Origin: Minisyncoccota bacterium
GTDB lineage: Bacteria; Patescibacteriota; Minisyncoccia; Phycocordibacterales; UBA9973
Length of the DNA stretch: 64,000 nt
Direction of reading: 5' to 3'
Assembly: GCA_017991395.1 (NCBI GenBank)
Contig: JAGOQQ010000002.1
Location: 61,925 to 125,924, forward strand
Positions 32,610-63,127 of the stretch are shown piece after piece. Position 1 is the stretch's first letter, and each line of letters begins with the position of its first letter. The notes under the pieces were generated by a model. The model was not told the origin of the DNA. It searched no databases and was given only the letters and a program-made list of their open reading frames with translations. A program made the translations under genes and the position numbers.

Positions 32610-34160
32610 ATGAATAATCAAACCAAAAAGTTTTTCATATATACTCGCAAGTCTACGGACGACAAAGACAGACAAGTCCGCAGTATTTCCGACCAGTTGA
32701 GTGAGTTAAAAGAGTTAGCGCTGAAAGAGCAACTGGAAGTGATGGATGTCTTTGTCGAAAAGCAGACCGCCAAAATACCAGGTCGTCCCGTGTTTAATGA
32801 AATGATGACGAGAATGGAAGCGGGCGAAGCGTCTGGTATTTTGGCGTGGCATCCCGATAGACTTGCTCGCAACTCGGTAGATGGAGGAAAAATCATCTAC
32901 CTCGTTGATACTGGAGTAATTTCAGAAATGAAATTCCCAACTTTTTGGTTTGATCCGACACCGCAAGGCAAATTCATGCTCTCAATCGCTTTTTCGCAAT
33001 CCAAGTATTATGTGGACAATTTGAGTGAAAATATCAAGCGCGGACATAGAAACAAAGTGAAGGAAGGGATATGGCCTCAAATGTCTCCGATTGGATATGT
33101 GAACGAGAAAGGAAAAGGTATTGTGCCACATCCTGAACTTTCGATTTTAGTAAAAAAGACATTTGAGGCATATGCAACTGGAAACTTCACTTTGCGGGAA
33201 GTCCGCGACAAATTTAACGCGCTTGGATTGAAAAGAAAAAGCGGTAGAGAGCTTGCGGTGTCGAATTATCAAAAACTTCTCAAAAATCCTATTTACACTG
33301 GTCTCATGAGGTATAACGGAGAGATTTTTGAGGGAAAGCACGAACCGATTATTTCAAAGAAACTTTTTGATTCTGTTCAAGAAGTGATGAGTCGAAAATC
33401 TAAACCTCATTCCAAAGGTTTGAAACCATATATTTATCGGGGATTTTTCCGTTGCGGAGAATGTGGATGTTTTATAACTACCGAGCAACAAAAAGGTCAT
33501 AACTATTTGCGATGTACCAAACGGAAAAATCCTTGTGAGCAAAAATATGTTCGTGAGGAGCTCATCACTTCTCAAATTCAAGAGGAAATCAAAAAAGTTT
33601 CTTTGCCTCTCGATTGGACAGAATGGATGATTGCCGAAAATGCAAAGGATCGGCAATCGGAAGTCCAATCAAGTGAGATTTTTTCTCAAAAAATACAAAG
33701 TAAAATTTCTCTTTTGGATGCAAAAATGGAGAAGCTGATGTCTGCGTATTTGGAAAGTGCATTTTCGCTTGAAGAATATCGTGATGCTAAAAGTGCCATG
33801 GTTAACTCAAAACAGCTTCTCAAAGAGAAATTATCAGCTTTTGAGAAAAAATCTCATAATCGGTTCGAACTTACCGAAAAGTTTTTGAAATACAATATGG
33901 AATTGGCAAACGACCGAACAAATGAGGAAAATACTCATTTGTTCAAAAAAGTCGGTTCGAACTTTCAAATTAAGGATCGAACCGTACTTTTTGAGCCACG
34001 CGGAGCGTGGAAAACCCTTTTGGATTCTGGATTCGGCGGGGGGAATGCCCTAGTGTCGCGCCTTCGGCGCGACCCCATTTCGGCTCTAAAATCCGATTTC
34101 GTTTTCTGGCGGAGACGGAGAGATTCGAACTCTCGAGGCCATTACAGCCTGCCTCCTTAG
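32610..34160 (+). CDS. large serine recombinase (resolvase/invertase N-terminal catalytic domain, recombinase domain, zinc ribbon, coiled-coil). The annotated 3' end runs through the repeat and tRNA-Ser, so the true stop may be earlier or the C-terminus repeat-derived
   Basis: FFIYTRKSTDDKDRQVRSISDQ (catalytic Ser in YTRKS), GILAWHPDRLARN, recombinase-domain residues, and a Cys cluster RCGECGCF...CTKRKNPC. Confidence 0.8.
   Translation: MNNQTKKFFIYTRKSTDDKDRQVRSISDQLSELKELALKEQLEVMDVFVEKQTAKIPGRPVFNEMMTRMEAGEASGILAWHPDRLARNSVDGGKIIYLVDTGVISEMKFPTFWFDPTPQGKFMLSIAFSQSKYYVDNLSENIKRGHRNKVKEGIWPQMSPIGYVNEKGKGIVPHPELSILVKKTFEAYATGNFTLREVRDKFNALGLKRKSGRELAVSNYQKLLKNPIYTGLMRYNGEIFEGKHEPIISKKLFDSVQEVMSRKSKPHSKGLKPYIYRGFFRCGECGCFITTEQQKGHNYLRCTKRKNPCEQKYVREELITSQIQEEIKKVSLPLDWTEWMIAENAKDRQSEVQSSEIFSQKIQSKISLLDAKMEKLMSAYLESAFSLEEYRDAKSAMVNSKQLLKEKLSAFEKKSHNRFELTEKFLKYNMELANDRTNEENTHLFKKVGSNFQIKDRTVLFEPRGAWKTLLDSGFGGGNALVSRLRRDPISALKSDFVFWRRRRDSNSRGHYSLPP
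33994..34110. repeat. inverted repeat arm C (partner of 32471..32587), ending at the tRNA-Ser CCA end
   Basis: See 32471..32587. Confidence 0.85.
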
Positions 34161-34509: not shown

Positions 34510-35076
34510 TTGGTACTATTAAATTCTATGATTACAACAATGCCTTATGACGTTCCATTGTATTCTCAAATAAGTGATATTTCATCCGTTGCATGGCAAC
34601 AAAAAGGATGTGGTGTGGCTGATGTGGCAATGATTGTAGAATTCTACAAGCCAAATACTACGACCGTACAAAAAGTTCTCGAAACAGCACTTGCGCAAGG
34701 CGCATATCAAAAAAATGTTGGGTGGAAACATGCGGGTCTTGCGGCACTTGCTTCAAAATACGGTCTCGTCGGAAAGACAGTGGATTTTTCTACGTATTCA
34801 AATGATTCAGCATTGAAAAATTTCAAAAAAGAAGTAGATGCGGGTCCGGTAGTGGCTTCAATTCGTCGCGGATTCAATCCAAAAAGTCCATATGGACACC
34901 TCGTGGTGATCACTGGATATGATGACAAAGTCGTGTACTACAACGATCCGGGAAAAAGAGACGGAAAAAAGTCCGTACTAATTGCAGATTTCATGAAAGG
35001 CTGGAAAAAAAGATTGATTGTTATACGTCCACCTGCAGAGAAAAAGGAAATTGTAAAAGTGACTTACTCGTACTAA
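34510..35076 (+). CDS. peptidase C39-like (papain-fold) domain protein
   Basis: VPLYSQ...GCGVADVAMIVEFY...GHLVVITGYDD gives the Cys/His layout of Peptidase_C39_2-like domains. Confidence 0.55.
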   Translation: MVLLNSMITTMPYDVPLYSQISDISSVAWQQKGCGVADVAMIVEFYKPNTTTVQKVLETALAQGAYQKNVGWKHAGLAALASKYGLVGKTVDFSTYSNDSALKNFKKEVDAGPVVASIRRGFNPKSPYGHLVVITGYDDKVVYYNDPGKRDGKKSVLIADFMKGWKKRLIVIRPPAEKKEIVKVTYSY

Positions 35077-35092: not shown

Positions 35093-36976
35093 TTAAGGTG
35101 TTTGTGTGCCCACTAAGCATACTTTTTGCCATGGTCTATAGACACTGTGAAAGTTTTTATCTTTCTTTGTTCCGTCTTTGTACAAGATAGAATACAACAC
35201 ATCGGTGGTGATGCCATCATGAGGACTCTCTATGCATTTGGTTTGTCCAATTTTCAAATCTGGTGTTGGTATGTATTTTGCTGGAGGTGCAGGAATTTTG
35301 TTGTATATTTTTGGTTCTGAAATTGTGACCGTGCGACCATCGCTATGACCATAGAGTTCCATTATTACTTCAGTACCTTCTACTCGTGCTTGAAGTAAGA
35401 GATAGCCCTCTGTGTCATTTGTAAATCGAAAATCAGGATGTGGACCATATATTGTGGCATCAAGTCCTGGCGGATCATAATAGTGAACGACAAATTTGTG
35501 ATTCATTCTCTCTGTTATGGGAAGTCCCGCATCAAGCGCAACACGAAAAAGAGTTGTGGCGATTTGGCACAATCCACCACCAAATTCCTTTGCGGTGGTG
35601 TTTTCTTTGATCACTGTTTCTTTTACGTAGCCTTCTTTTTCAGTCACCGCACCAATCGATTTGACTGTTGAAAATTCTCCACCAGGTGGAATAAGCATTC
35701 CATTTATTGCTCCTGCTCCTATTGTTATGTTGTGTGCACGATCAGCACTACTACCTTTGAAGCTTGTGCGCACTTCGCCAACAAGGTCATTGATATAATA
35801 TTTTTCTACTGTTTCTTTCGTGACACGTGGCTCAATTTCGATTGTTTCCACAGGAATAGAAAACGTACTACTTTTTGCATCATATGTCGCGGTGGTATCT
35901 TTTGTGTAGGTTTGTGAGTCTGGTGATTCTGGATTTACCAAATAACTTATTTGAATTTCATTAAATATTTTTTCTAAATCATTTCGTACTTTTTCAGCAT
36001 TTACTGCCTGACCACTTTTCCCCTTGGATATCTCTACAAGTTCACCTTCGATCATTTGGAACCTACTGTTTTTTCTTGGGTTGTTTATGTATTTAGCGAC
36101 TGTACCATTCATGTATCTATCGAATATACTCGGATCAATGCTTATGAGACGCTGTTCGTTTAATGTCAGCCACTCTACAAATTTTGGACTCGTCACTTTC
36201 CATTTTTGACCTTTGTAGGTGAATACCACATTCATTTTTTTAGCAATATGTTCTGCGAGTCCTCGAAATTGCTCAAGGTCTGATTTGACCACAGAAGGAA
36301 TGTCATCATACACAGAATGCTCACTGGGTGAAATGTCGAGAGTGGCTATTTTTGTTTCAAGAGATTTTAGTACCTCATCCATATGGACACTCTTTCCATT
36401 TTTTTCTTGTGTGATCGAAAGTGTATTATTTGAAAACGTGAATTGAGCAGGAATTTTTTCCTCAACAAATGGCAACATTTCATGATTGATGAGTGATGTG
36501 ATTGCGTCGTGTTGGATGCTGTTTGCGAAAGTGAAATATTTTTTTCTAAAAAGGAGTGATATTTTGTGCGCACTATTTTTAATCAAAGAAGGTGATCGTC
36601 CGTACATGAATGCTTCGTTGACGGTGCGTTGCCAGTCTGCAATCGTGAGATATTCGACGGATGTATCAGAAGTGAGTCCTGTATAAGAAACAGGAATTGT
36701 GATCTTGCGCTCTTCCTCGCCCATGTCGAAATATACAGAAAGCCCATCTGCTTCAAGAGAGGCAATTCGTTCGCTAAAAATAGTTGCGACTTCAGCCTCT
36801 GTGAGTCCGCCTGCGTATACATTACCGACATAAATGCCCGGGTAGAAGCGATCTTTGTACTTTATTTGGAGAACTATAAGTGAAATGATTCCGGCAAGTA
36901 GGCACACCGCAAGAAAAACACCTACTTTGAAATAAGATTTTTTTCTAAAGTATTCCAATGTGGAATGCTTTATCAT
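35093..36976 (-). CDS. VanW-family protein (N-terminal TM anchor)
   Basis: GGGLCQIATTLFRVALDAGLPITERMNHKFVVHYYDPPGLDATIY matches the VanW core. Confidence 0.7.
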   Translation of the reverse strand: MIKHSTLEYFRKKSYFKVGVFLAVCLLAGIISLIVLQIKYKDRFYPGIYVGNVYAGGLTEAEVATIFSERIASLEADGLSVYFDMGEEERKITIPVSYTGLTSDTSVEYLTIADWQRTVNEAFMYGRSPSLIKNSAHKISLLFRKKYFTFANSIQHDAITSLINHEMLPFVEEKIPAQFTFSNNTLSITQEKNGKSVHMDEVLKSLETKIATLDISPSEHSVYDDIPSVVKSDLEQFRGLAEHIAKKMNVVFTYKGQKWKVTSPKFVEWLTLNEQRLISIDPSIFDRYMNGTVAKYINNPRKNSRFQMIEGELVEISKGKSGQAVNAEKVRNDLEKIFNEIQISYLVNPESPDSQTYTKDTTATYDAKSSTFSIPVETIEIEPRVTKETVEKYYINDLVGEVRTSFKGSSADRAHNITIGAGAINGMLIPPGGEFSTVKSIGAVTEKEGYVKETVIKENTTAKEFGGGLCQIATTLFRVALDAGLPITERMNHKFVVHYYDPPGLDATIYGPHPDFRFTNDTEGYLLLQARVEGTEVIMELYGHSDGRTVTISEPKIYNKIPAPPAKYIPTPDLKIGQTKCIESPHDGITTDVLYSILYKDGTKKDKNFHSVYRPWQKVCLVGTQTP

Positions 36977-53355: not shown

Positions 53356-53883
53356 TTGGCATTAATAGTTGGTTTTATTTTAGGTGGACTGTTTCCAGTA
53401 GATAATTATTTGAATTCTCAAAAGGCTACAAGTCTTGATTCAGAGTTTGCAGAGAAATCACTAAATGAAAATGGTCGTGCGCATACTAGTATCAATGACT
53501 TGAACAACACTGAGCCAACCCCTAATTCTAATTATCCATATCCATACATGTGTGGGGACGAACCTATGATTTTTGACTTACCGGACATTAATCCTCAGAA
53601 TGAAATTACATATATTACCCAGGGTGGACTATCAATAACGTGTTTTTTGATGGCTGCAAGAGTGGCAAAAGAGATTACTGATGAAGTTCTTGTTGAAGAT
53701 TTGAGTGTGGTTGGAAAATTGAATTCATCAACACAACCAAACCCATCACCTGAAAAGAAATATAAATGTACTTCACAATATGGGAGTAGTAACATTGAAG
53801 ATTTTCCATTTAATTATCAAAGTTTTAGCTACACAATATTGTATCAAGCATATAGCGTGACGTGGAATTGTGAGGCTATATAA
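53356..53883 (+). CDS. hypothetical (secreted?) protein with a TTG start
   Basis: Hydrophobic N-terminus and no recognisable motif. Confidence 0.35.
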   Translation: MALIVGFILGGLFPVDNYLNSQKATSLDSEFAEKSLNENGRAHTSINDLNNTEPTPNSNYPYPYMCGDEPMIFDLPDINPQNEITYITQGGLSITCFLMAARVAKEITDEVLVEDLSVVGKLNSSTQPNPSPEKKYKCTSQYGSSNIEDFPFNYQSFSYTILYQAYSVTWNCEAI

Positions 53884-56118: not shown

Positions 56119-56712
56119 ATGCAACAACAGGTCTTTGAACCTAACTTTTTAAACCTCGAATTTATTTTCGGAGCGATCTATACTTTCTTTGGAAATCTTT
56201 TTTCCGGAGGTTCTGTTGATTTCACTCAACTTATAAATATACTCGTCGCACTTTTTTCTATTCTCGCAATACTACTTATTGCAATCATTATTTATACATG
56301 GGTACGAATATTTGAAATCAACAAAAAGGAACACGCCGAACACAAAGCACTCTTTGCAAAAGAACACGTGTCAGAAGATCCTGTTCGAATGACCGTCGTG
56401 AACCCACGCTGGGAACAAGTACAAAAGCATATACGCTCTGATACGCCTGCAGATTGGAGACTCGCAATACTTGAAGCAGACTTGATGCTTGAAGACTTGC
56501 TGGTCACGCTCGGATACAAAGAGGGAACTATAGGAGAAAAACTAAAAGCAATTGAACCAAGTGACTTTCCAGGACACGACAGAGCATGGTGGGCGCACAG
56601 AGTCCGAAACAATATTGCACACCAAGGCTCTACCTATATTCTCGGCAAAGCAGAAGCACGCAACACTATTGATATTTTCGAAGAAGTATTTAAGGCGAAT
56701 AATTATATATAA
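56119..56712 (+). CDS. membrane protein with a cytoplasmic helical domain carrying an Rx4H (HEPN-like) motif
   Basis: TM region followed by ...AWWAHRVRNNIAHQG (R-x4-H). Confidence 0.35.
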   Translation: MQQQVFEPNFLNLEFIFGAIYTFFGNLFSGGSVDFTQLINILVALFSILAILLIAIIIYTWVRIFEINKKEHAEHKALFAKEHVSEDPVRMTVVNPRWEQVQKHIRSDTPADWRLAILEADLMLEDLLVTLGYKEGTIGEKLKAIEPSDFPGHDRAWWAHRVRNNIAHQGSTYILGKAEARNTIDIFEEVFKANNYI

Positions 56713-56764
56713 GTAGCAACACCGCAATTTCTTTTGAAGGGATATTGCGGTGTTATAAGTTTGT

Positions 56765-59725
56765 ATGAAAAAAATATACAAAAGTATAATCAAGCTGTGT
56801 GTTGTATGTGCGATGTGTATGAATGGTGGTGATGTGTTCGCATTGACTGATCTTAGTGGCGGAAGTGTAATGCTTACCTCAAACACTACGTGGACACTTT
56901 CTGGTAGTCCGTATGTTGTTGATTTTGTGTACATTGATAACGGGGCAGTACTGACACTCGAGCCTGGTGTAATTGTAAAATTTACATATGGTGGGTCTGA
57001 TCAAGCTGCTCAGATAAGTATTGAAGACGGGGCAATTGTTGCAAACGGAACTGAAGCAAGTCCGATTATTTTCACTTCATACAATGATGATGTGGGAGGT
57101 GACACAAATGGTGATGGAAATTTGAGTGAACCTGCGATGTACGATTGGAATGGAATATATTTTTCAAATACTGAATCATCAGCCATGTTATTTACTGTGT
57201 TTAATAATGCACAAATAAAGTATTCAGAATTTGGATTGAAAATAAAAGAGGGAATTCTGACAAATATAGATTTCTCATATAATAACGTAGCATTGTTTTT
57301 GTTCGGTGGAGATCCAATGACAATTAGTGATATGGCTTTTGCTTCAAATGGTGTTGATTTAAAACTTGGCGGGAATAGAGAACTCTCACTTTCTGGATAC
57401 ACTTTTGATACTAGTGAAATCGCCGTTGTGACTCAAAATAATTCTCATTTTATTTGTGATGAGTGTAACTTTTTGGGAGGATATTCTGCAATTATGGTGG
57501 GTGGTGATTCGGATCTTACACTTACAAATTCGTTGATTGAAAACTATACAAATGCTGGAATATTTAATCAAAGTGTTTCGCCTACTTTCAGTCCTGAGCC
57601 AGGAGATAATGAAATAAACATTTCTAATAGTGAAATTAGAAACAATGATATTGGAATAGAATTTGGTTCGGATGGATATGGTGTAATAGTAAACAATTCA
57701 ATTCATGACAATGTGACATTCGGAGTGAAGATTCTTGATTTTGATTCACCAGCCACGGTTGACCTCAGAAACAATTGGTGGGGCCATGCCTCTGGTCCAC
57801 ATGAAGTCGTGGGGAATCCCAGTGGACAAGGTGACAATCTGCAAGTGCAGTTTATTCCGTATTCTCCATGGACAGGACAATTGTCACCTATGACTTTGCA
57901 TCAATATAAAATGGACGGCGAATTTGAATTGTCAGAAGGTAACACAAACATGAGTGACAAATTTGTATTCAAAGCGAAAGGTTCACTTGTGGCAAGTCCA
58001 AGAAAAATTGAAGTTGAAATAAAACCGCACGCACAAAGTTTTGATGGTCTGGTTACCCATCTTTCAGATTTTCAATCAAACACTGATGAGCTGAGTGTGG
58101 ACGTGAGTCCGATTGTGAAAGGTTCGTACAAATGGCGTGCGAGAATTGTTGATTCTGGCGGAGGTGAGGGGAACTGGATTGAATTTGGAACTACGCAAAG
58201 CGGAGTGGATTTCATTGCAAAACCAATTCCGCACTATACGCAAAATCAGTCCGATTTCCCAGAACCTGGATTTTCTGAGGAATGGTATAGAGAAGCTTAT
58301 GCAAATGGTAAAAGTACATATGAAGGTGGATGTGGATATACAATTAGAAGTTGTGGTTGTGCGTTAACTTCTTTAGTTATGTTGTTACGATTTCATGAGA
58401 TTGAAAATATACAAAACGAAGATATAAATCCTCTGTCATTAAATAATTGGTTAAATCAAAACAATGGTTACGGTCCACGTGGCGATGTATTGTGGTATAC
58501 CATGGCAAAGTATACAAACAATCAATTTAAAATTGTAGATTCAGTCAATTACGATACATACTTAGCAACTCGTGACAATTCGAAGCTTGACCAATATTTA
58601 GCACAAGGTTTTCCTGTGATTGCACGAATGAAGGGACAGCGAAAATTAACAGGGCAAAGTGGTGGAGGACATTTTCTGGTAATAGGAAATAAATTAAATG
58701 ATACGTATGAAGTAAAAGATCCATCACAATACAATACCACAACACTCAGTCACATTCCGGAATCAAATGAAGATCATGTAAGAACATACTTTAATGGTTA
58801 TGATGGTTTACGTTTTTTAAAACCTGTATTAAACAGTGTTACAGAAGCATACACTGCTGTTCATATGGCATCACCGGCAGATATTTTAATAACTGATTTG
58901 CAAGGCAGACGTGTAGGGCGAAATCCTATAACAGGAGAATATTTTCAAGAAATCCCGGGAAGTTTTTATGTTTCCGATAGTGTTGACGATGCGGAAAAAG
59001 AGAATCTTGAGAATTTTGACCATGACCAAAAAACAGCATACATTCCAAACTTAGGGAATGTATATGATCTCGATGTGTTTGGCACAGGTGATGGCTCGTA
59101 TAGATTGGATATAGAAAAAGTACCTGTAACAGGTGCCGAACAAACATTTGTATACGAGGGCGAGGTGGTTGAAAATGAAGTACAACCTTTTTCAGTTCTT
59201 TCTACAAATTCAGAAATACATATTAAAGATGAAAAGATTGATACAACTCCACCATCGTTGACACTTGCATTAAATGGCAACGAAGGAAAAAATTGGTTAT
59301 TGGAAGGAGTTGACGAGAATGCGCCGGTGACAAAAAATGTTGATGTGCATAACCATATATTTTCAGTTGAAGACAGATATGGAAATACTGCAAAAATAGA
59401 TTTTGATGTTGTGCCCGGATACAGAATGCCTGCGATTGGCAAACTCAATCTTGAGCTCAATCGTGTTACAATAAATGACACAGAACAGATGATTCCATAT
59501 ACATGGATTAGTTATGATTGGAGTAACAATGGAGGACCAGGAGTGATGTTCAAGCAGGTGTATTCATCGAGTGATGGATATGTTCAGGCAGTATATACCC
59601 AAGCAACAAATCAGACGGCAGTTACCATAATGAATGGAACAACAGTACAAAATCTCACATTTCCAAAATTAAAATTAATTAAGATACACATTTCACCAAA
59701 TGGACAACCAAGCTATCAACTATAA
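56765..59725 (+). CDS. large secreted protein with a right-handed parallel beta-helix (PbH1 repeats) and a central papain-like/C39-like peptidase domain
   Basis: Signal-peptide-like N-terminus. PbH1-like repeats (SNSEIRNNDIGIEFG, NNSIHDNVTFGVKI). Peptidase-like Cys (GGCGYTIRSCGCALTSLVMLL) and His (GGGHFLVIGN). Confidence 0.55.
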   Translation: MKKIYKSIIKLCVVCAMCMNGGDVFALTDLSGGSVMLTSNTTWTLSGSPYVVDFVYIDNGAVLTLEPGVIVKFTYGGSDQAAQISIEDGAIVANGTEASPIIFTSYNDDVGGDTNGDGNLSEPAMYDWNGIYFSNTESSAMLFTVFNNAQIKYSEFGLKIKEGILTNIDFSYNNVALFLFGGDPMTISDMAFASNGVDLKLGGNRELSLSGYTFDTSEIAVVTQNNSHFICDECNFLGGYSAIMVGGDSDLTLTNSLIENYTNAGIFNQSVSPTFSPEPGDNEINISNSEIRNNDIGIEFGSDGYGVIVNNSIHDNVTFGVKILDFDSPATVDLRNNWWGHASGPHEVVGNPSGQGDNLQVQFIPYSPWTGQLSPMTLHQYKMDGEFELSEGNTNMSDKFVFKAKGSLVASPRKIEVEIKPHAQSFDGLVTHLSDFQSNTDELSVDVSPIVKGSYKWRARIVDSGGGEGNWIEFGTTQSGVDFIAKPIPHYTQNQSDFPEPGFSEEWYREAYANGKSTYEGGCGYTIRSCGCALTSLVMLLRFHEIENIQNEDINPLSLNNWLNQNNGYGPRGDVLWYTMAKYTNNQFKIVDSVNYDTYLATRDNSKLDQYLAQGFPVIARMKGQRKLTGQSGGGHFLVIGNKLNDTYEVKDPSQYNTTTLSHIPESNEDHVRTYFNGYDGLRFLKPVLNSVTEAYTAVHMASPADILITDLQGRRVGRNPITGEYFQEIPGSFYVSDSVDDAEKENLENFDHDQKTAYIPNLGNVYDLDVFGTGDGSYRLDIEKVPVTGAEQTFVYEGEVVENEVQPFSVLSTNSEIHIKDEKIDTTPPSLTLALNGNEGKNWLLEGVDENAPVTKNVDVHNHIFSVEDRYGNTAKIDFDVVPGYRMPAIGKLNLELNRVTINDTEQMIPYTWISYDWSNNGGPGVMFKQVYSSSDGYVQAVYTQATNQTAVTIMNGTTVQNLTFPKLKLIKIHISPNGQPSYQL

Positions 59726-60794
59726 AAAATACTTGTTATTTGTTGTGATTGTTGGAATTTTCGCACACGGTGGATTGTATTTTCTATACCATAATATTGA
59801 GCCTCAAAATCAAGAAAAGTCACAGAATACAATTATTACTGAAAACAAACAAGTAAGTAATAAAAATTTAATTTGTCGTGACCAAATTAAGTCACTGAAA
59901 TGGGATGATAAGGTAAATGTATATAAAAATCAAAGCTCTGGTGATATGAGAGTTGAAATTACTGACCTACGCGATAAGAAGTATGATTATGTGATTAAAG
60001 ATGTGAATGTAGGTTCTATCGATTCATTCATTGAAACAGATTGTCATTTTTATACAACGAAATTCTTAAATGTGAAAAGAGAGTCATCTAAATTAACATA
60101 TGACGCTTCGTTATGGCAATATACTTATGATGGCACTGGTAAAAAGATCTTAGATTTTACAGAACGCATTGATATAAGTAGTATTAAATTTATATATAGC
60201 CTTGGCTACTCGGTGGATCCAAAGGAAAAATTTATCGCGCTTTCAAATAGACATTCCTCAAACGGAGAAATGTATCTGTTTATCAAGAGAATGGCAACAC
60301 TTGAAAATGTTTCTCAAATAAATCTTAAAAAAGATTTATTTGAGAAACATCCTGAGAAAAGAGGTGATATTGCCTTCGAGAATGGATCATGGTCTACCGA
60401 TGAAAAATTTTTCCTCGTTCCGTTTAGTGATCAAGCAAACATAACTGGCTATATAAGGGTACAATTAACTGATGGCCACTTCGATGTATTTGATGTGTAT
60501 CCAGGTACAATGGTGGGGGATAAGATAAATGTTGATTCAGGTTGGACAACATTTGATGATGGACCTGAATGGTCTGGTTGGTCTGACATTGAAGAATCAA
60601 ACAGAGATGAATGGAGAGCACAGGGTATCAAGATCAACTTTGGAATATACAATATATATACAAAACAAAAAATAGTCATTGAACAAGTGGACGACACGAC
60701 ACATTGGCATGAACCACGTTGGATTGATGACAATACACTAGAGTACCTTTCTATCACAGGTGAAAAAAAGATATTTATTGTTAGTACTAATTAG
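59700..60794 (+). CDS. membrane-anchored hypothetical protein, paralog A
   Basis: N-terminal TM. Shares blocks with the next ORF (SLWQYTYDGTGKKILDF vs SLWRYTYDGVGDKLIDL; C-terminal G[IV]YNI[YF]TK[QE]KIVI). Confidence 0.4.
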   Translation: MDNQAINYKKYLLFVVIVGIFAHGGLYFLYHNIEPQNQEKSQNTIITENKQVSNKNLICRDQIKSLKWDDKVNVYKNQSSGDMRVEITDLRDKKYDYVIKDVNVGSIDSFIETDCHFYTTKFLNVKRESSKLTYDASLWQYTYDGTGKKILDFTERIDISSIKFIYSLGYSVDPKEKFIALSNRHSSNGEMYLFIKRMATLENVSQINLKKDLFEKHPEKRGDIAFENGSWSTDEKFFLVPFSDQANITGYIRVQLTDGHFDVFDVYPGTMVGDKINVDSGWTTFDDGPEWSGWSDIEESNRDEWRAQGIKINFGIYNIYTKQKIVIEQVDDTTHWHEPRWIDDNTLEYLSITGEKKIFIVSTN

Positions 60795-60861
60795 ATTTTT
60801 TTTTGGAATTTTGTAAAACTACGTACAAAATTTAAAATTATATATTTAATTTTAAATAAAA

Positions 60862-61995
60862 TTGGATTTATGCACACTTGTTTTGAAGTATCTTATGACA
60901 TCTGATTTGAAAACAAAAAAGTATGGAAATGCCCCATTCTATATTATTGGAATTAGTGTCTTTTTGTGTACGGTGTTTGCATATTTAGGAGCACCAATAA
61001 AAATTGATGAAGATTTTAGTACAAATCAAGTACATGAAGAAAAAACTACATTGGCTGAGAAAAAGATATTATGTAAAGAACAAATTAGTTCAATTAAAAC
61101 TTTTAAAACTAATGTTAATCAGAAGCAGTACGATCAAGGTGTCAAAGTTTTTGTTGAGACGAAAACCGGACAAACTTATGAATTTGTAATTGAAAACTTT
61201 GATATTGAAAGGTTTGATGGATATTATCAGTCAAATTGTCATATTTATGCAGTTAGAATAATTCATGATTATACTAAAAGTGAAAATAAGATTCAGTCAG
61301 TTTCTTTGTGGAGATATACTTATGATGGTGTTGGTGATAAATTGATTGATCTATTTGACCGAACCAGTGTTGGGGAAAGTGGAAAACTTTTTTCATTCTC
61401 CGTGTTTGTGGACCCCCAAGAACAATTTATTATACTCGAGAACTATTTCAGCTCGCAGACACATAAATTATATTTTAAAAAACTTCCCGACCTTGAAGAT
61501 ATTTTTACTGTAGATGTGAAAGAATATTTTAATAGAAACAATCTAAATAATTTCTCTTGTTATATTGATTTTCATGAAACTGAAGTGTCTGATAATAGAA
61601 AATATATTGTCCTAGGCTCAAGTTTTACAACAGAGAAGTGTGGGTATTTTAAAATCGATATAATTAGTGGAATTATGGAGTATTTTGATTTACCAGTCGA
61701 TGAATTTACGGTTTATTCCTTAAATATTGATACGGGTTGGGTGTTTTTTGATGGAAGACCAAACTTTTTTTCATTCGACGGTGATGATTCAGAAGAAAAA
61801 GCATATGTCAAAGAATCCAAAGAAACCGGAAGAATTTTTCATCACGGTGTGTATAATATCTTCACTAAGGAAAAAATAGTAATTACAGAATATGGAGATT
61901 TTTATTTCTTTCCCCGTTTTGAATGGATAGATGAGTACTCAGCATGGTACTTTGACCCAAGTGGTGAAAAGAAGATATATACATTGCCGCAATAG
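60862..61995 (+). CDS. membrane-anchored hypothetical protein, paralog B
   Basis: Tandem duplicate of 59700..60794. Confidence 0.4.
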   Translation: MDLCTLVLKYLMTSDLKTKKYGNAPFYIIGISVFLCTVFAYLGAPIKIDEDFSTNQVHEEKTTLAEKKILCKEQISSIKTFKTNVNQKQYDQGVKVFVETKTGQTYEFVIENFDIERFDGYYQSNCHIYAVRIIHDYTKSENKIQSVSLWRYTYDGVGDKLIDLFDRTSVGESGKLFSFSVFVDPQEQFIILENYFSSQTHKLYFKKLPDLEDIFTVDVKEYFNRNNLNNFSCYIDFHETEVSDNRKYIVLGSSFTTEKCGYFKIDIISGIMEYFDLPVDEFTVYSLNIDTGWVFFDGRPNFFSFDGDDSEEKAYVKESKETGRIFHHGVYNIFTKEKIVITEYGDFYFFPRFEWIDEYSAWYFDPSGEKKIYTLPQ

Positions 61996-62046
61996 TTTTT
62001 AAATCTAACTACTTACAATTAGCTAGTAACTCAAAATTACGCATTT

Positions 62047-62087
62047 CCCGCGATAGCGGGAAATGCGTAATTTTTTTATACTATAGA
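62047..62087 (+). terminator. intrinsic terminator (ttacgcatttcccgc-gata-gcgggaaatgcgtaa then ttttttt)
   Basis: 15-bp perfect stem and a T-run. Confidence 0.75.
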
Positions 62088-62221
62088 TGGTTAATAGTTA
62101 ATAGTTAATGGATGATGAATGAAGGGTGATGGTTGATAATAGTACACGGTTGAATATGAGTGAGTCTTATATACAGTCAATTATCATCCTATTATCCAAT
62201 CTTCCTGTCTCGACCTGAAAT

Positions 62222-63127
62222 TTGCTATACTCACTCAATATGGACGCGACAGCAAAAGAACAATTACAAATGCGGATTGCCGAACTTGAAGCCAGTATGT
62301 CAGCGGCGGATTTTTGGTCAGACAAACACAAGGCGCAGGCGGTGATTAAAGAAATCCAAGAATTGAAAGACAAGATTGAAGGACTTGGAAAATACGACAA
62401 AGGTGATGCAGTGATCACGATTTTTTCTGGTGCAGGAGGTGATGATTCGGAAGATTTTTCTCGAATGCTTCTACAGATGTATATGAAATACATTTCAAAA
62501 AAAGGCTGGCAAATTTCTTTTCTTCATGAAAACAAAAATGATCACGGCGGATACAGAAATATTACTTTTGAAATAAATGGCAAAGGTGCGTACGGTACAA
62601 TGAAAGGCGAGTCTGGCGTGCATCGACTTGTGCGTATCTCTCCGTTTAATGCAAAACAACTTCGCCACACATCTTTCTCAATGGTTGAAGTAATTCCAAA
62701 ACTTCCAAAAGACAATGATCTTGTGATCAATGAATCTGATATCAAGATTGATTTTGCACGTTCGGGTGGTCCGGGTGGGCAAAACGTGAACAAGCGAGAG
62801 ACTGCAGTACGAATGGTACATACTCCGACAGGACTTGCGGTGCATGCAGATGGTGAGCGTTCACAAGAAGCAAACCGTGAAAAAGCTCTGATGCTTTTGA
62901 AGGGAAAACTTTTCAAAAGACAAGAAGACGAAAGAATCGCAAGTGAAAAAGGATTGTATATTTCCAAGACAACGGATATTGAATGGGGAAATCAAATTCG
63001 TTCATATGTACTTCATCCATACAAAATGGTCAAAGATCATCGCACAGAAGTAGAGACAAGTGATGTGGATGCGGTGCTTGAGGATGGTGAGATTGACGAA
63101 TTCATTGAAGCAGAGCGAAATATATAA
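62222..63127 (+). CDS. prfB: peptide chain release factor 2 (short N-terminus; TTG start or Met at 62240; no programmed +1 frameshift detectable)
   Basis: SPF tripeptide (RISPFNAKQ) and the GGQ motif ([18 protein letters not shown]). Confidence 0.8.

Follow-up and report, generated by a model that had tools for sequence, protein, structure and literature searches.

We analyzed a 64,000-nucleotide stretch of a Minisyncoccota genome (contig JAGOQQ010000002.1; hereafter the window), in which the gene for a large, predicted exported protein with a C39-type peptidase domain (orf986) overlaps the gene for a membrane-anchored protein with a predicted β-propeller (orf364). A second, divergent paralog of the latter (orf366) follows in tandem. 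The gene order in the window is ligA, two small open reading frames (ORFs), gatC, gatA, orf197, orf986, orf364, orf366, a strong terminator, prfB, and ftsE, and the closest relatives of the locus are found in metagenome-assembled genomes (MAGs) of Paceibacterota. An earlier note, made by a model from the letters of the sequence, had grouped orf197, orf986, and the two paralogs into one locus, and we recovered all four ORFs where it had placed them. Whereas orf986 and the paralogs indeed belong together, orf197 does not, and the pairing of peptidase and propeller had been overlooked. The conserved unit is the peptidase core together with its propeller partner, and the β-helix of orf986 is an exchangeable accessory. 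The features of this two-gene module and of its additional partner copy are the following.

56718–56754, + strand: stable hairpin separating the stop codon of orf197 from the start of orf986 and marking the 5′ boundary of the module (−19.1 kcal/mol, z = −4.2; 0 of 200 shuffles reach that value)
56765–59725, + strand: orf986, predicted exported modular peptidase, stop codon included (ORF, Pfam matches, 11 full-length homologs)
56765–56842, + strand: Sec-type signal peptide, residues 1–26, cut after VFA, assigned by inspection
56846–57880, + strand: right-handed β-helix region, residues 28–372, accessory and exchangeable (Beta_helix match above threshold)
57881–58222, + strand: Ig/FN3-like β-sandwich ("midIg"), residues 373–486
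58223–58834, + strand: Peptidase_C39_2-like domain with predicted papain fold, residues 487–690
58241–58243, 58358–58360, 58670–58672, and 58718–58720, + strand: codons of Q493, C532, H636, and D652 in the catalytic domain
58835–59722, + strand: C-terminal β-sandwich tail domains, residues 691–986 (all-β in the model; "Cterm" profile conserved across loci)
59700–60794, + strand: orf364, cognate partner with a transmembrane helix (residues 8–32), a disordered linker, and a predicted β-propeller ectodomain
60895–61995, + strand: orf366, second, divergent partner paralog (ORF open from TTG 60862)
62033–62074, + strand: hairpin resembling an intrinsic terminator, with a 19-bp stem and a T-run after it, closing the module at its 3′ end

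Domain architecture and predicted fold of the peptidase

With 986 residues, orf986 is large rather than "giant", as the earlier note had called it. It matched the Pfam family Beta_helix (PF13229) in two stretches with 35.6 bits against a gathering threshold (GA) of 25.9, and Peptidase_C39_2 (PF13529) at residues 528–640 with 30.8 bits against a GA of 24. NosD (PF05048), the third profile that the earlier note had proposed to search, missed its cut-off in orf986 (19.6 bits against a GA of 23.6) and is passed by homologs of the module elsewhere with 48–137 bits. The Peptidase_C39_2 scores of the orf986 homologs range from 26.7 to 32.2 bits, and some fall below the GA. No match of orf986 to Peptidase_C39 (PF03412) appeared even at E ≤ 1, nor did orf986 itself match NlpC/P60. 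At the N-terminus, a hydrophobic core (residues 8–27) and a V-F-A cleavage site of the A-x-A type precede the invariant T28, and this cleavage-site pattern is kept in the homologs.

The 11 full-length homologs, with identities down to 31%, share the invariant residues Q493, C523, C530-G-C532-A, H636-F, and D652-P. These same residues are unchanged in 19 of 19 loci and throughout a set of 13 diverse domains. An AlphaFold model of residues 373–986 (pLDDT 72.6) revealed an N-terminal β-sandwich, an α/β domain, and several C-terminal β-sandwiches. Its best fold matches in the PDB are papain-like peptidases, with a cell-wall isopeptidase at the top and PeiR among them; PCAT1, the ComA peptidase domain, staphopain, interpain, and streptopain were found as well, the remaining matches being FN3/Ig domains. 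In the model, C532 sits at the N-terminus of the main helix, where the nucleophiles of papain-like enzymes are located, and H636 at the start of a strand. C532 is therefore more likely than C530 to be the predicted nucleophile within the CGCA motif (residues 530–533). We assign the papain-like fold of the C39 domain, as well as the propeller fold of the partner, with the moderate confidence of the models. The exported architecture of β-helix and C39-like domain proposed in the earlier note is thus borne out by two Pfam matches above GA, a Sec signal, and papain-like fold matches, and the Cys/His placement in the model also speaks, indirectly, for a peptidase fold, the absence of which had been considered. 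A profile of 13 C39 sequences retrieved nothing from the PDB at E ≤ 1, and a viral fold search returned only uninformative matches to FN3-rich tail proteins with TM-scores below 0.2.

Directly after the signal peptide, a segment of about 100 residues (28–130; window 56846–57150) of the form SGSPYVV...LTIEPGVIVKF...GGDTNGDG...DW is invariant across the aligned homologs. Hundreds of otherwise unrelated large β-helix proteins with dockerin, lipase, or type IX secretion system sorting domains match 9–20% of orf986 at 35–50% identity, and the stretch common to them may be this segment.

The membrane-anchored partner proteins

The last 26 nucleotides of orf986 overlap the start of orf364 (59700), as the earlier note had observed, and overlap or abutment of the two genes recurs in relatives. 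The tandem paralogs orf364 and orf366 align over their full length with 28% identity (E = 1e-44) and share the SLW[QR]YTYDG[TV]G and G[IV]YNI[YF]TK[QE]KIVI blocks, in agreement with the relationship claimed for them. We rejected the possibility that they derive from one frameshifted gene: both ORFs are full length, and each has its own single N-terminal transmembrane helix. The model of orf364 (pLDDT 74.9, pTM 0.72) comprises the transmembrane helix at residues 8–32, a disordered linker, and an all-β ectodomain classed as a propeller.

The partner family has no Pfam model, and only two of 52 members match Peptidase_S9_N, weakly. An exhaustive HMMER search of 1.84 billion representatives placed about 180 clusters, counted at 50% identity, in the family at E < 1e-3, with lengths mostly of 340–365 residues. 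Such an exhaustive search was required because word-indexed searches, even profile-based ones, found only about 11 clusters.

The most likely start of orf366 is ATG 60895, giving 366 residues, as a database protein (P0131) is identical to orf366 from this codon. The nearest relatives of orf366 are found only in the orf364 clade, at 28–31% identity; its GC content is 30.7% against 39.3% for the window, and it is missing from the close relative L001. We regard this second partner copy as old. Another database protein, P0122 from the NCBI MAG QG669_326, has an N-terminus of about 60 residues identical to orf364 and a C-terminal tail, GEKKIYTLPQ, matching orf366, a combination suggesting that the tandem paralogs have recombined in another strain.

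A two-gene module across Patescibacteria

The comparison of related genomes that the earlier note had suggested found the enzyme and partner genes linked from both search directions. Close relatives (L001, L003, L004, L005, and L010) keep the gatA-orf197-enzyme-partner synteny, and in this clade prfB-ftsE-ftsX lies just downstream of the module. The more distant locus L006 encodes a 31%-identical enzyme after a V-ATPase operon, without orf197 and with the partner directly downstream. A partner-seeded scan of GTDB genomes yielded 24 loci from Paceibacterota/Parcubacteria, Yonath-, Campbell-, Nealson-, Berkel-, and Falkowbacteria and from two otherwise-labelled MAGs. In nearly all of them, domain hidden Markov models derived from our alignments detected a midIg-C39-Cterm core gene immediately upstream of the partner, often overlapping it. 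The enzyme-seeded scan of metagenome contigs gave 80 loci, 71 of them informative, and 63 of these (89%) contain the partner, adjacent in 57, adjacent or overlapping in two, and fused in frame in four. Across about 100 loci, we found no conserved neighbor other than the propeller partner.

The module occurs in contexts unrelated to that of the window, and its ftsEX neighborhood is not kept outside the close relatives. Some MAGs carry several module copies (L022/L033, L026/L028, and L020/L031/L032). Extra tandem partner genes are present in at least 12 loci besides the window (L018, L029, and 10 enzyme-seeded loci), each with a single enzyme gene. Small PsbP_2-like proteins adjoin the module in three diverse loci (L017:2723–3250, L023:4733–5851, and L029:4650–5261) and might be an occasional third component. 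Short ORFs with the enzyme C-terminal tail domain alone stand after partner genes in L015 (6950–7378) and L029 (6494–6739) and resemble leftovers of enzyme genes that have decayed or been displaced.

Domain exchange and gene fusions

The N-terminal module of the enzyme consists of NosD/Beta_helix repeats in most loci and of Kelch repeats in L014, and it is lacking in L013 and L022/L033. The catalytic domain is also exchangeable: L029 encodes an enzyme of the same layout, followed by two partner genes, in which NlpC/P60 (35.9 bits, GA 23) takes the slot of C39. The NlpC/P60 family shares its clan with C39 and comprises peptidases that act on peptidoglycan, and its occurrence in place of C39 is the best indirect evidence for a cell-wall peptide as substrate.

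Enzyme and partner are fused in frame in five loci (L016, L042, L078, L093, and L094) with four distinct sequences. The partner part of these fusions begins at profile position 36–43, past the transmembrane helix, and the fusion linkers contain no segment of transmembrane grade (maximum 19-residue Kyte-Doolittle score of 1.08–1.24), whereas 98% of 91 free-standing partners have an N-terminal transmembrane segment with a median score of 2.48. The fusions therefore place both proteins on the same, extracellular side and argue for their physical cooperation. They also make a partner that simply inhibits, or that does nothing but anchor, less convincing. Taken alone, the existence of a two-gene module whose products physically cooperate is very probable.

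A divergence hotspot shared by enzyme and partner

We compared the window with the related strain L001, a 213-kb JGI contig. The proteins encoded around the module (LigA, orf99, GatC, GatA, orf197, PrfB, and FtsE) are 96–99.5% identical between the two, but orf986 is 75% identical overall and 42–54% in residues 501–700, and orf364 is 60% identical overall and 28–62% in its N-terminal half. By the Nei-Gojobori method, the flanking genes show a synonymous divergence (dS) of 0.22–0.40 and nonsynonymous-to-synonymous ratios (ω) of 0.01–0.07, whereas the synonymous sites are saturated (proportion of differences ~0.75) in enzyme residues 501–700 and partner residues 59–250. Such saturation indicates old divergent alleles imported by recombination, and we rejected an origin of the hotspot purely by point mutation or positive selection on the same ground.

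The alleles are mosaic. Between L001 and the window, the identities are 93% for midIg, 56% for the C39 domain, 82% for the C-terminal tail, and 60% for the partner; between L001 and L003, the corresponding values are 51, 77, 63, and 82%. Sliding windows locate the switch at about residues 490–700 of the enzyme and residues 41–260 of the partner, so two patches about 290 codons apart have the same incongruent history. Between the window and L001, the C39 domain and partner residues 41–260 have about 50% identity. This co-switching probably reflects co-adaptation of interacting surfaces. The domain-wise correlation over all loci is similar for every domain (rho 0.69–0.76) and confounded by shared phylogeny, which limits the evidence to the discrete incongruence among the window, L001, and L003. 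The site downstream of the partner is variable as well: it is empty in L001 and holds an unrelated 586-residue gene in L003 and a 193-residue gene in L005. The local hotspot, the mosaic alleles, and the recurring tandem partner copies substantiate the earlier suggestion of a surface module under diversification.

Possible function of the module

We favor an explanation in which orf986 and orf364 would form an extracellular two-component peptidase-propeller complex acting on cell-envelope peptides, an account that in its entirety we put forward tentatively, at slightly less than an even chance. orf986 would be exported by Sec, with a constant core made of the Ig-like domain, the C39_2-type catalytic domain, and the β-sandwich tails, and the N-terminal β-helix (or Kelch) region would serve as an exchangeable targeting module. 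By analogy with PbH1/CASH-type helices, the β-helix probably binds glycan. orf364, presumably coupled translationally to the enzyme through the 26-nucleotide overlap, would expose its propeller on the outer face of the membrane, held by the single N-terminal helix. There the propeller would dock on the C39 domain. It would retain at the cell surface an enzyme that has no anchor of its own, and it would regulate entry to the active site or give this site its shape, much as propellers do in prolyl-oligopeptidase/S9 enzymes. The most likely targets of cleavage would be stem or cross-link peptides of the peptidoglycan type, or a different peptide of the wall, in the envelope either of the organism to which the candidate phyla radiation (CPR) cell attaches or of the CPR cell itself. 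orf366 would be a partner allele used as an alternative or kept in reserve.

The fusions and the analogy with enzymes combining a propeller and a peptidase lead us to favor docking with a gating or regulatory role. Whether the partner gates or tethers rather than inhibits we consider plausible but somewhat doubtful, and a cell-envelope peptide as substrate about as probable as not. The strict invariance of the four catalytic-type residues at about 30% identity argues, at the level of sequence, for catalysis. Peptidase_C39_2 and C39-like domains are listed as catalytic domains of phage lysins (PMC8223927, PMC3314691), which agrees with a cell-wall substrate, as does the structural match of the model to PeiR.

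Several observations weigh against this explanation. The substrates of free-standing C39-like proteins are uncertain, and an archaeal C39-like protein was reported to be inactive on peptides and to hydrolyze galactosides (PMC13642728). The sequence evidence for a wall enzyme falls short of significance: PDB searches with the C39 region found only PeiR (E = 0.17), and the match to an endolysin family in PHROGs had E = 0.04. Among the 71 informative enzyme-seeded loci, eight lack the partner, and these mostly lack midIg. The fusions have no membrane anchor, and tethering therefore cannot be the universal role of the partner. Finally, the enzyme-less extra partners, the gene order, and the concerted allele exchange fit an inhibitor or immunity role equally well.

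The latter role is the main rival: orf986 would be a secreted wall-degrading toxin directed at competitors or hosts, the anchored propeller its cognate inhibitor guarding the producer, and orf366 an orphan or extra immunity gene. This is unlikely in our estimation, even though much of the genetic organization suits it. The partner gene follows the enzyme with a translational overlap, and its product is displayed on the outside of the producing cell's membrane. The catalytic domain and the partner were replaced in concert, with saturated dS, as in polymorphic toxin/immunity cassettes. Partner genes outnumber the single enzyme gene in the window and in at least 12 other loci, and enzyme-tail fragments follow the partner in L015 and L029. 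Papain toxin domains of the C39-like type occur in polymorphic toxins, but the same 2012 survey (PMC3482391) says explicitly that immunity proteins with a β-propeller were not known, and about 365 residues are large for an immunity protein. A dedicated inhibitor would hardly be expected to recur in fusions devoid of a transmembrane helix, unless these undergo cleavage. Rather than standing at the C-terminus, the catalytic domain lies inside the protein (residues 487–690 of 986), with about 300 residues of β-sandwiches after it, and the enzyme contains no trafficking or delivery domain beyond the Sec signal. PADLOC gave no match to any defence-system protein model.

Alternatively, orf986 could be a housekeeping autolysin that remodels the wall of the CPR cell itself during growth or division, with the propeller as a membrane-bound activator comparable to the FtsEX/PcsB-type or LpoA/B-type regulators of other wall enzymes. 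The exchange of the papain-fold domain for NlpC/P60, the membrane anchor of the partner, the position just upstream of prfB-ftsE-ftsX in the window clade, and the wide occurrence in Patescibacteria would all suit such a role. We nevertheless judge it improbable, as extreme allelic divergence and mosaicism beside housekeeping genes of 96–99.5% identity are unexpected for a core growth function. The ftsEX neighborhood, moreover, is confined to close relatives, the N-terminal targeting modules vary, some MAGs have several copies, and the GC content of the module lies below the genome average.

Still less probable is a non-enzymatic role at the surface, as an adhesin or in association with an S-layer, with the papain-like domain limited to ligand binding and the propeller as its anchor: β-helix, FN3/Ig, and β-sandwich domains are typical of adhesins and the partner is the sole membrane anchor, but four strictly invariant catalytic-type residues and the loss of the anchor in the fusions speak against it. 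Processing of double-glycine leader peptides, by which the C39 domain would mature a bacteriocin or another secreted peptide, the way ComA/PCAT transporters do, and which the earlier note had also considered, is very improbable, because orf986 shares the clan and the Q/C/H/D arrangement but has no PF03412 match, no fused or adjacent ABC exporter, and no conserved small-peptide gene in about 100 loci, and is predicted to be extracellular with adhesin-like modules.

Within the favored explanation of a peptidase-propeller complex, the C39 domain and the propeller might constitute an exchangeable specificity cassette, diversified by cassette recombination and by spare propeller alleles kept in tandem, such as orf366. 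The module would then be a determinant of host range or attachment of episymbiotic Patescibacteria that recognizes and cuts the envelope of the partner organism. Such a role is rather unlikely as a specific claim.

Neighboring genes and the second C39 locus

Upstream of the module lies orf197 (56119–56712, + strand), a small membrane protein with a C-terminal RNNIAH motif that we judge to be outside the module. It always follows gatCA in the window clade, is 99.5% identical to its L001 counterpart with an ω of 0.008, unlike the module, and its motif (R163-N-N-I-A-H168, Rx4-6H) is invariant in four homologs. Its homologs are limited to syntenic gatCA-linked relatives and occur in 0 of 16 other module-bearing loci, and the stable hairpin separates it from orf986; it is therefore a neighbor rather than a component. 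The membrane protein with the Rx4H motif described in the earlier note is real, whereas its HEPN assignment found no support: the best HEPN profile, HEPN_RiboL-PSP, matched below threshold (E = 0.035, 14.4 bits against a GA of 28.4) in three of four homologs, and PDB sequence searches gave chance-level matches only. A PADLOC match to "CARF_2M" was rejected, as it spans the transmembrane region alone.

A second C39 protein is encoded at 34510–35076. This free-standing protein of 188 residues matches C39_2 at 2.4e-15 and C39 (PF03412) at 1.9e-8 and has no transmembrane or signal segment by hydropathy. The earlier note had paired it with a VanW protein, and a VanW/PG_binding_4/G5 protein is indeed encoded at 35093–36976. 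The two genes are, however, convergent on opposite strands and thus not an operon. Neither did a link of this pair to the orf986 module hold, given the differing contexts and the 21% identity of the two C39 domains. The C39 gene lies directly downstream of a large serine recombinase (32610–34160; Resolvase, Recombinase, and Zn_ribbon_recom domains), and this adjacency may mark it as cargo of an integrated element.

Elsewhere in the window, prfB appears as two overlapping ORFs (62160–62345 and 62222–63127), as is typical of the release factor 2 gene with its programmed +1 frameshift. orf175 (53356–53883), located between ligA and orf99, has a 207-residue homolog with 44% identity in L003, and L001 and L004 have no called gene there. 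This is another small point of variation in a region where gene order is otherwise kept. A prepilin peptidase and three or four N_methyl pilin-like genes stand just upstream of ligA in L001 (1–3111), L003, and L004; by synteny, they correspond to about 47.3–51.2 kb of the window, which would put the module some 5 kb away from a cluster for a type IV pilus.

Relation to known systems and significance

None of the enzyme's domain families is new, and secreted hydrolases of the wall type that come with a cognate partner are a known principle. From C39-like peptidases that stand alone (e.g., B. anthracis 3ERV) and from the C39-like catalytic domains of Gram-positive and mycobacteriophage lysins, orf986 differs in that its C39 domain is embedded in an exported multidomain protein of about 1,000 residues, obligately paired with a propeller gene, and equipped with the extra invariant cysteines C523 and C530. 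The similarity to the pseudomurein endoisopeptidases PeiW, PeiP, and PeiR (8Z4H) is, as mentioned, not significant in sequence; orf986 lacks pseudomurein-binding repeats, and nothing points to an archaeal target. NlpC/P60 endopeptidases belong to the papain-like clan and can take the same slot beside the same partner genes, as in L029, but differ in details of circular permutation and of the motifs. The C39 domains of ABC exporters such as ComA and PCAT1 are cytoplasmic, unlike the predicted extracellular domain of orf986, which comes without a transporter or GG-leader genes. Polymorphic toxins and wall amidases of type VI secretion systems (Tox-PL-C39; Tae-Tai) resemble the module in the adjacent, co-varying downstream gene, the concerted recombination, and the extra partner copies, but not in the internal catalytic domain, the lack of delivery domains, the large propeller partner, or the fusions. 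Compared with prolyl oligopeptidase/S9 enzymes, the catalytic domain is papain-like instead of an α/β-hydrolase, and the parts are usually separate polypeptides; the likeness is generic to propellers.

Our literature searches on YvpB, on C39 and Patescibacteria, and on peptidoglycan hydrolases and Patescibacteria returned nothing describing the module. To judge by the libraries and papers searched, the partner family, its obligate pairing with the enzyme, and the joint, cassette-like exchange of partner and catalytic domain have not been described before.

A large part of bacterial diversity belongs to the Patescibacteria, which for the most part live in attachment to other cells, and to our knowledge the molecules mediating this contact are largely unknown. 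If the partner were an immunity protein after all, it would be the first of the propeller type. The module also offers a natural system for the control of a papain-fold peptidase by a separate propeller subunit. Occurring phylum-wide, predicted to be surface-exposed, with intact catalytic residues and local hypervariability, it is a candidate determinant of the cell surface and of host interaction in these bacteria.

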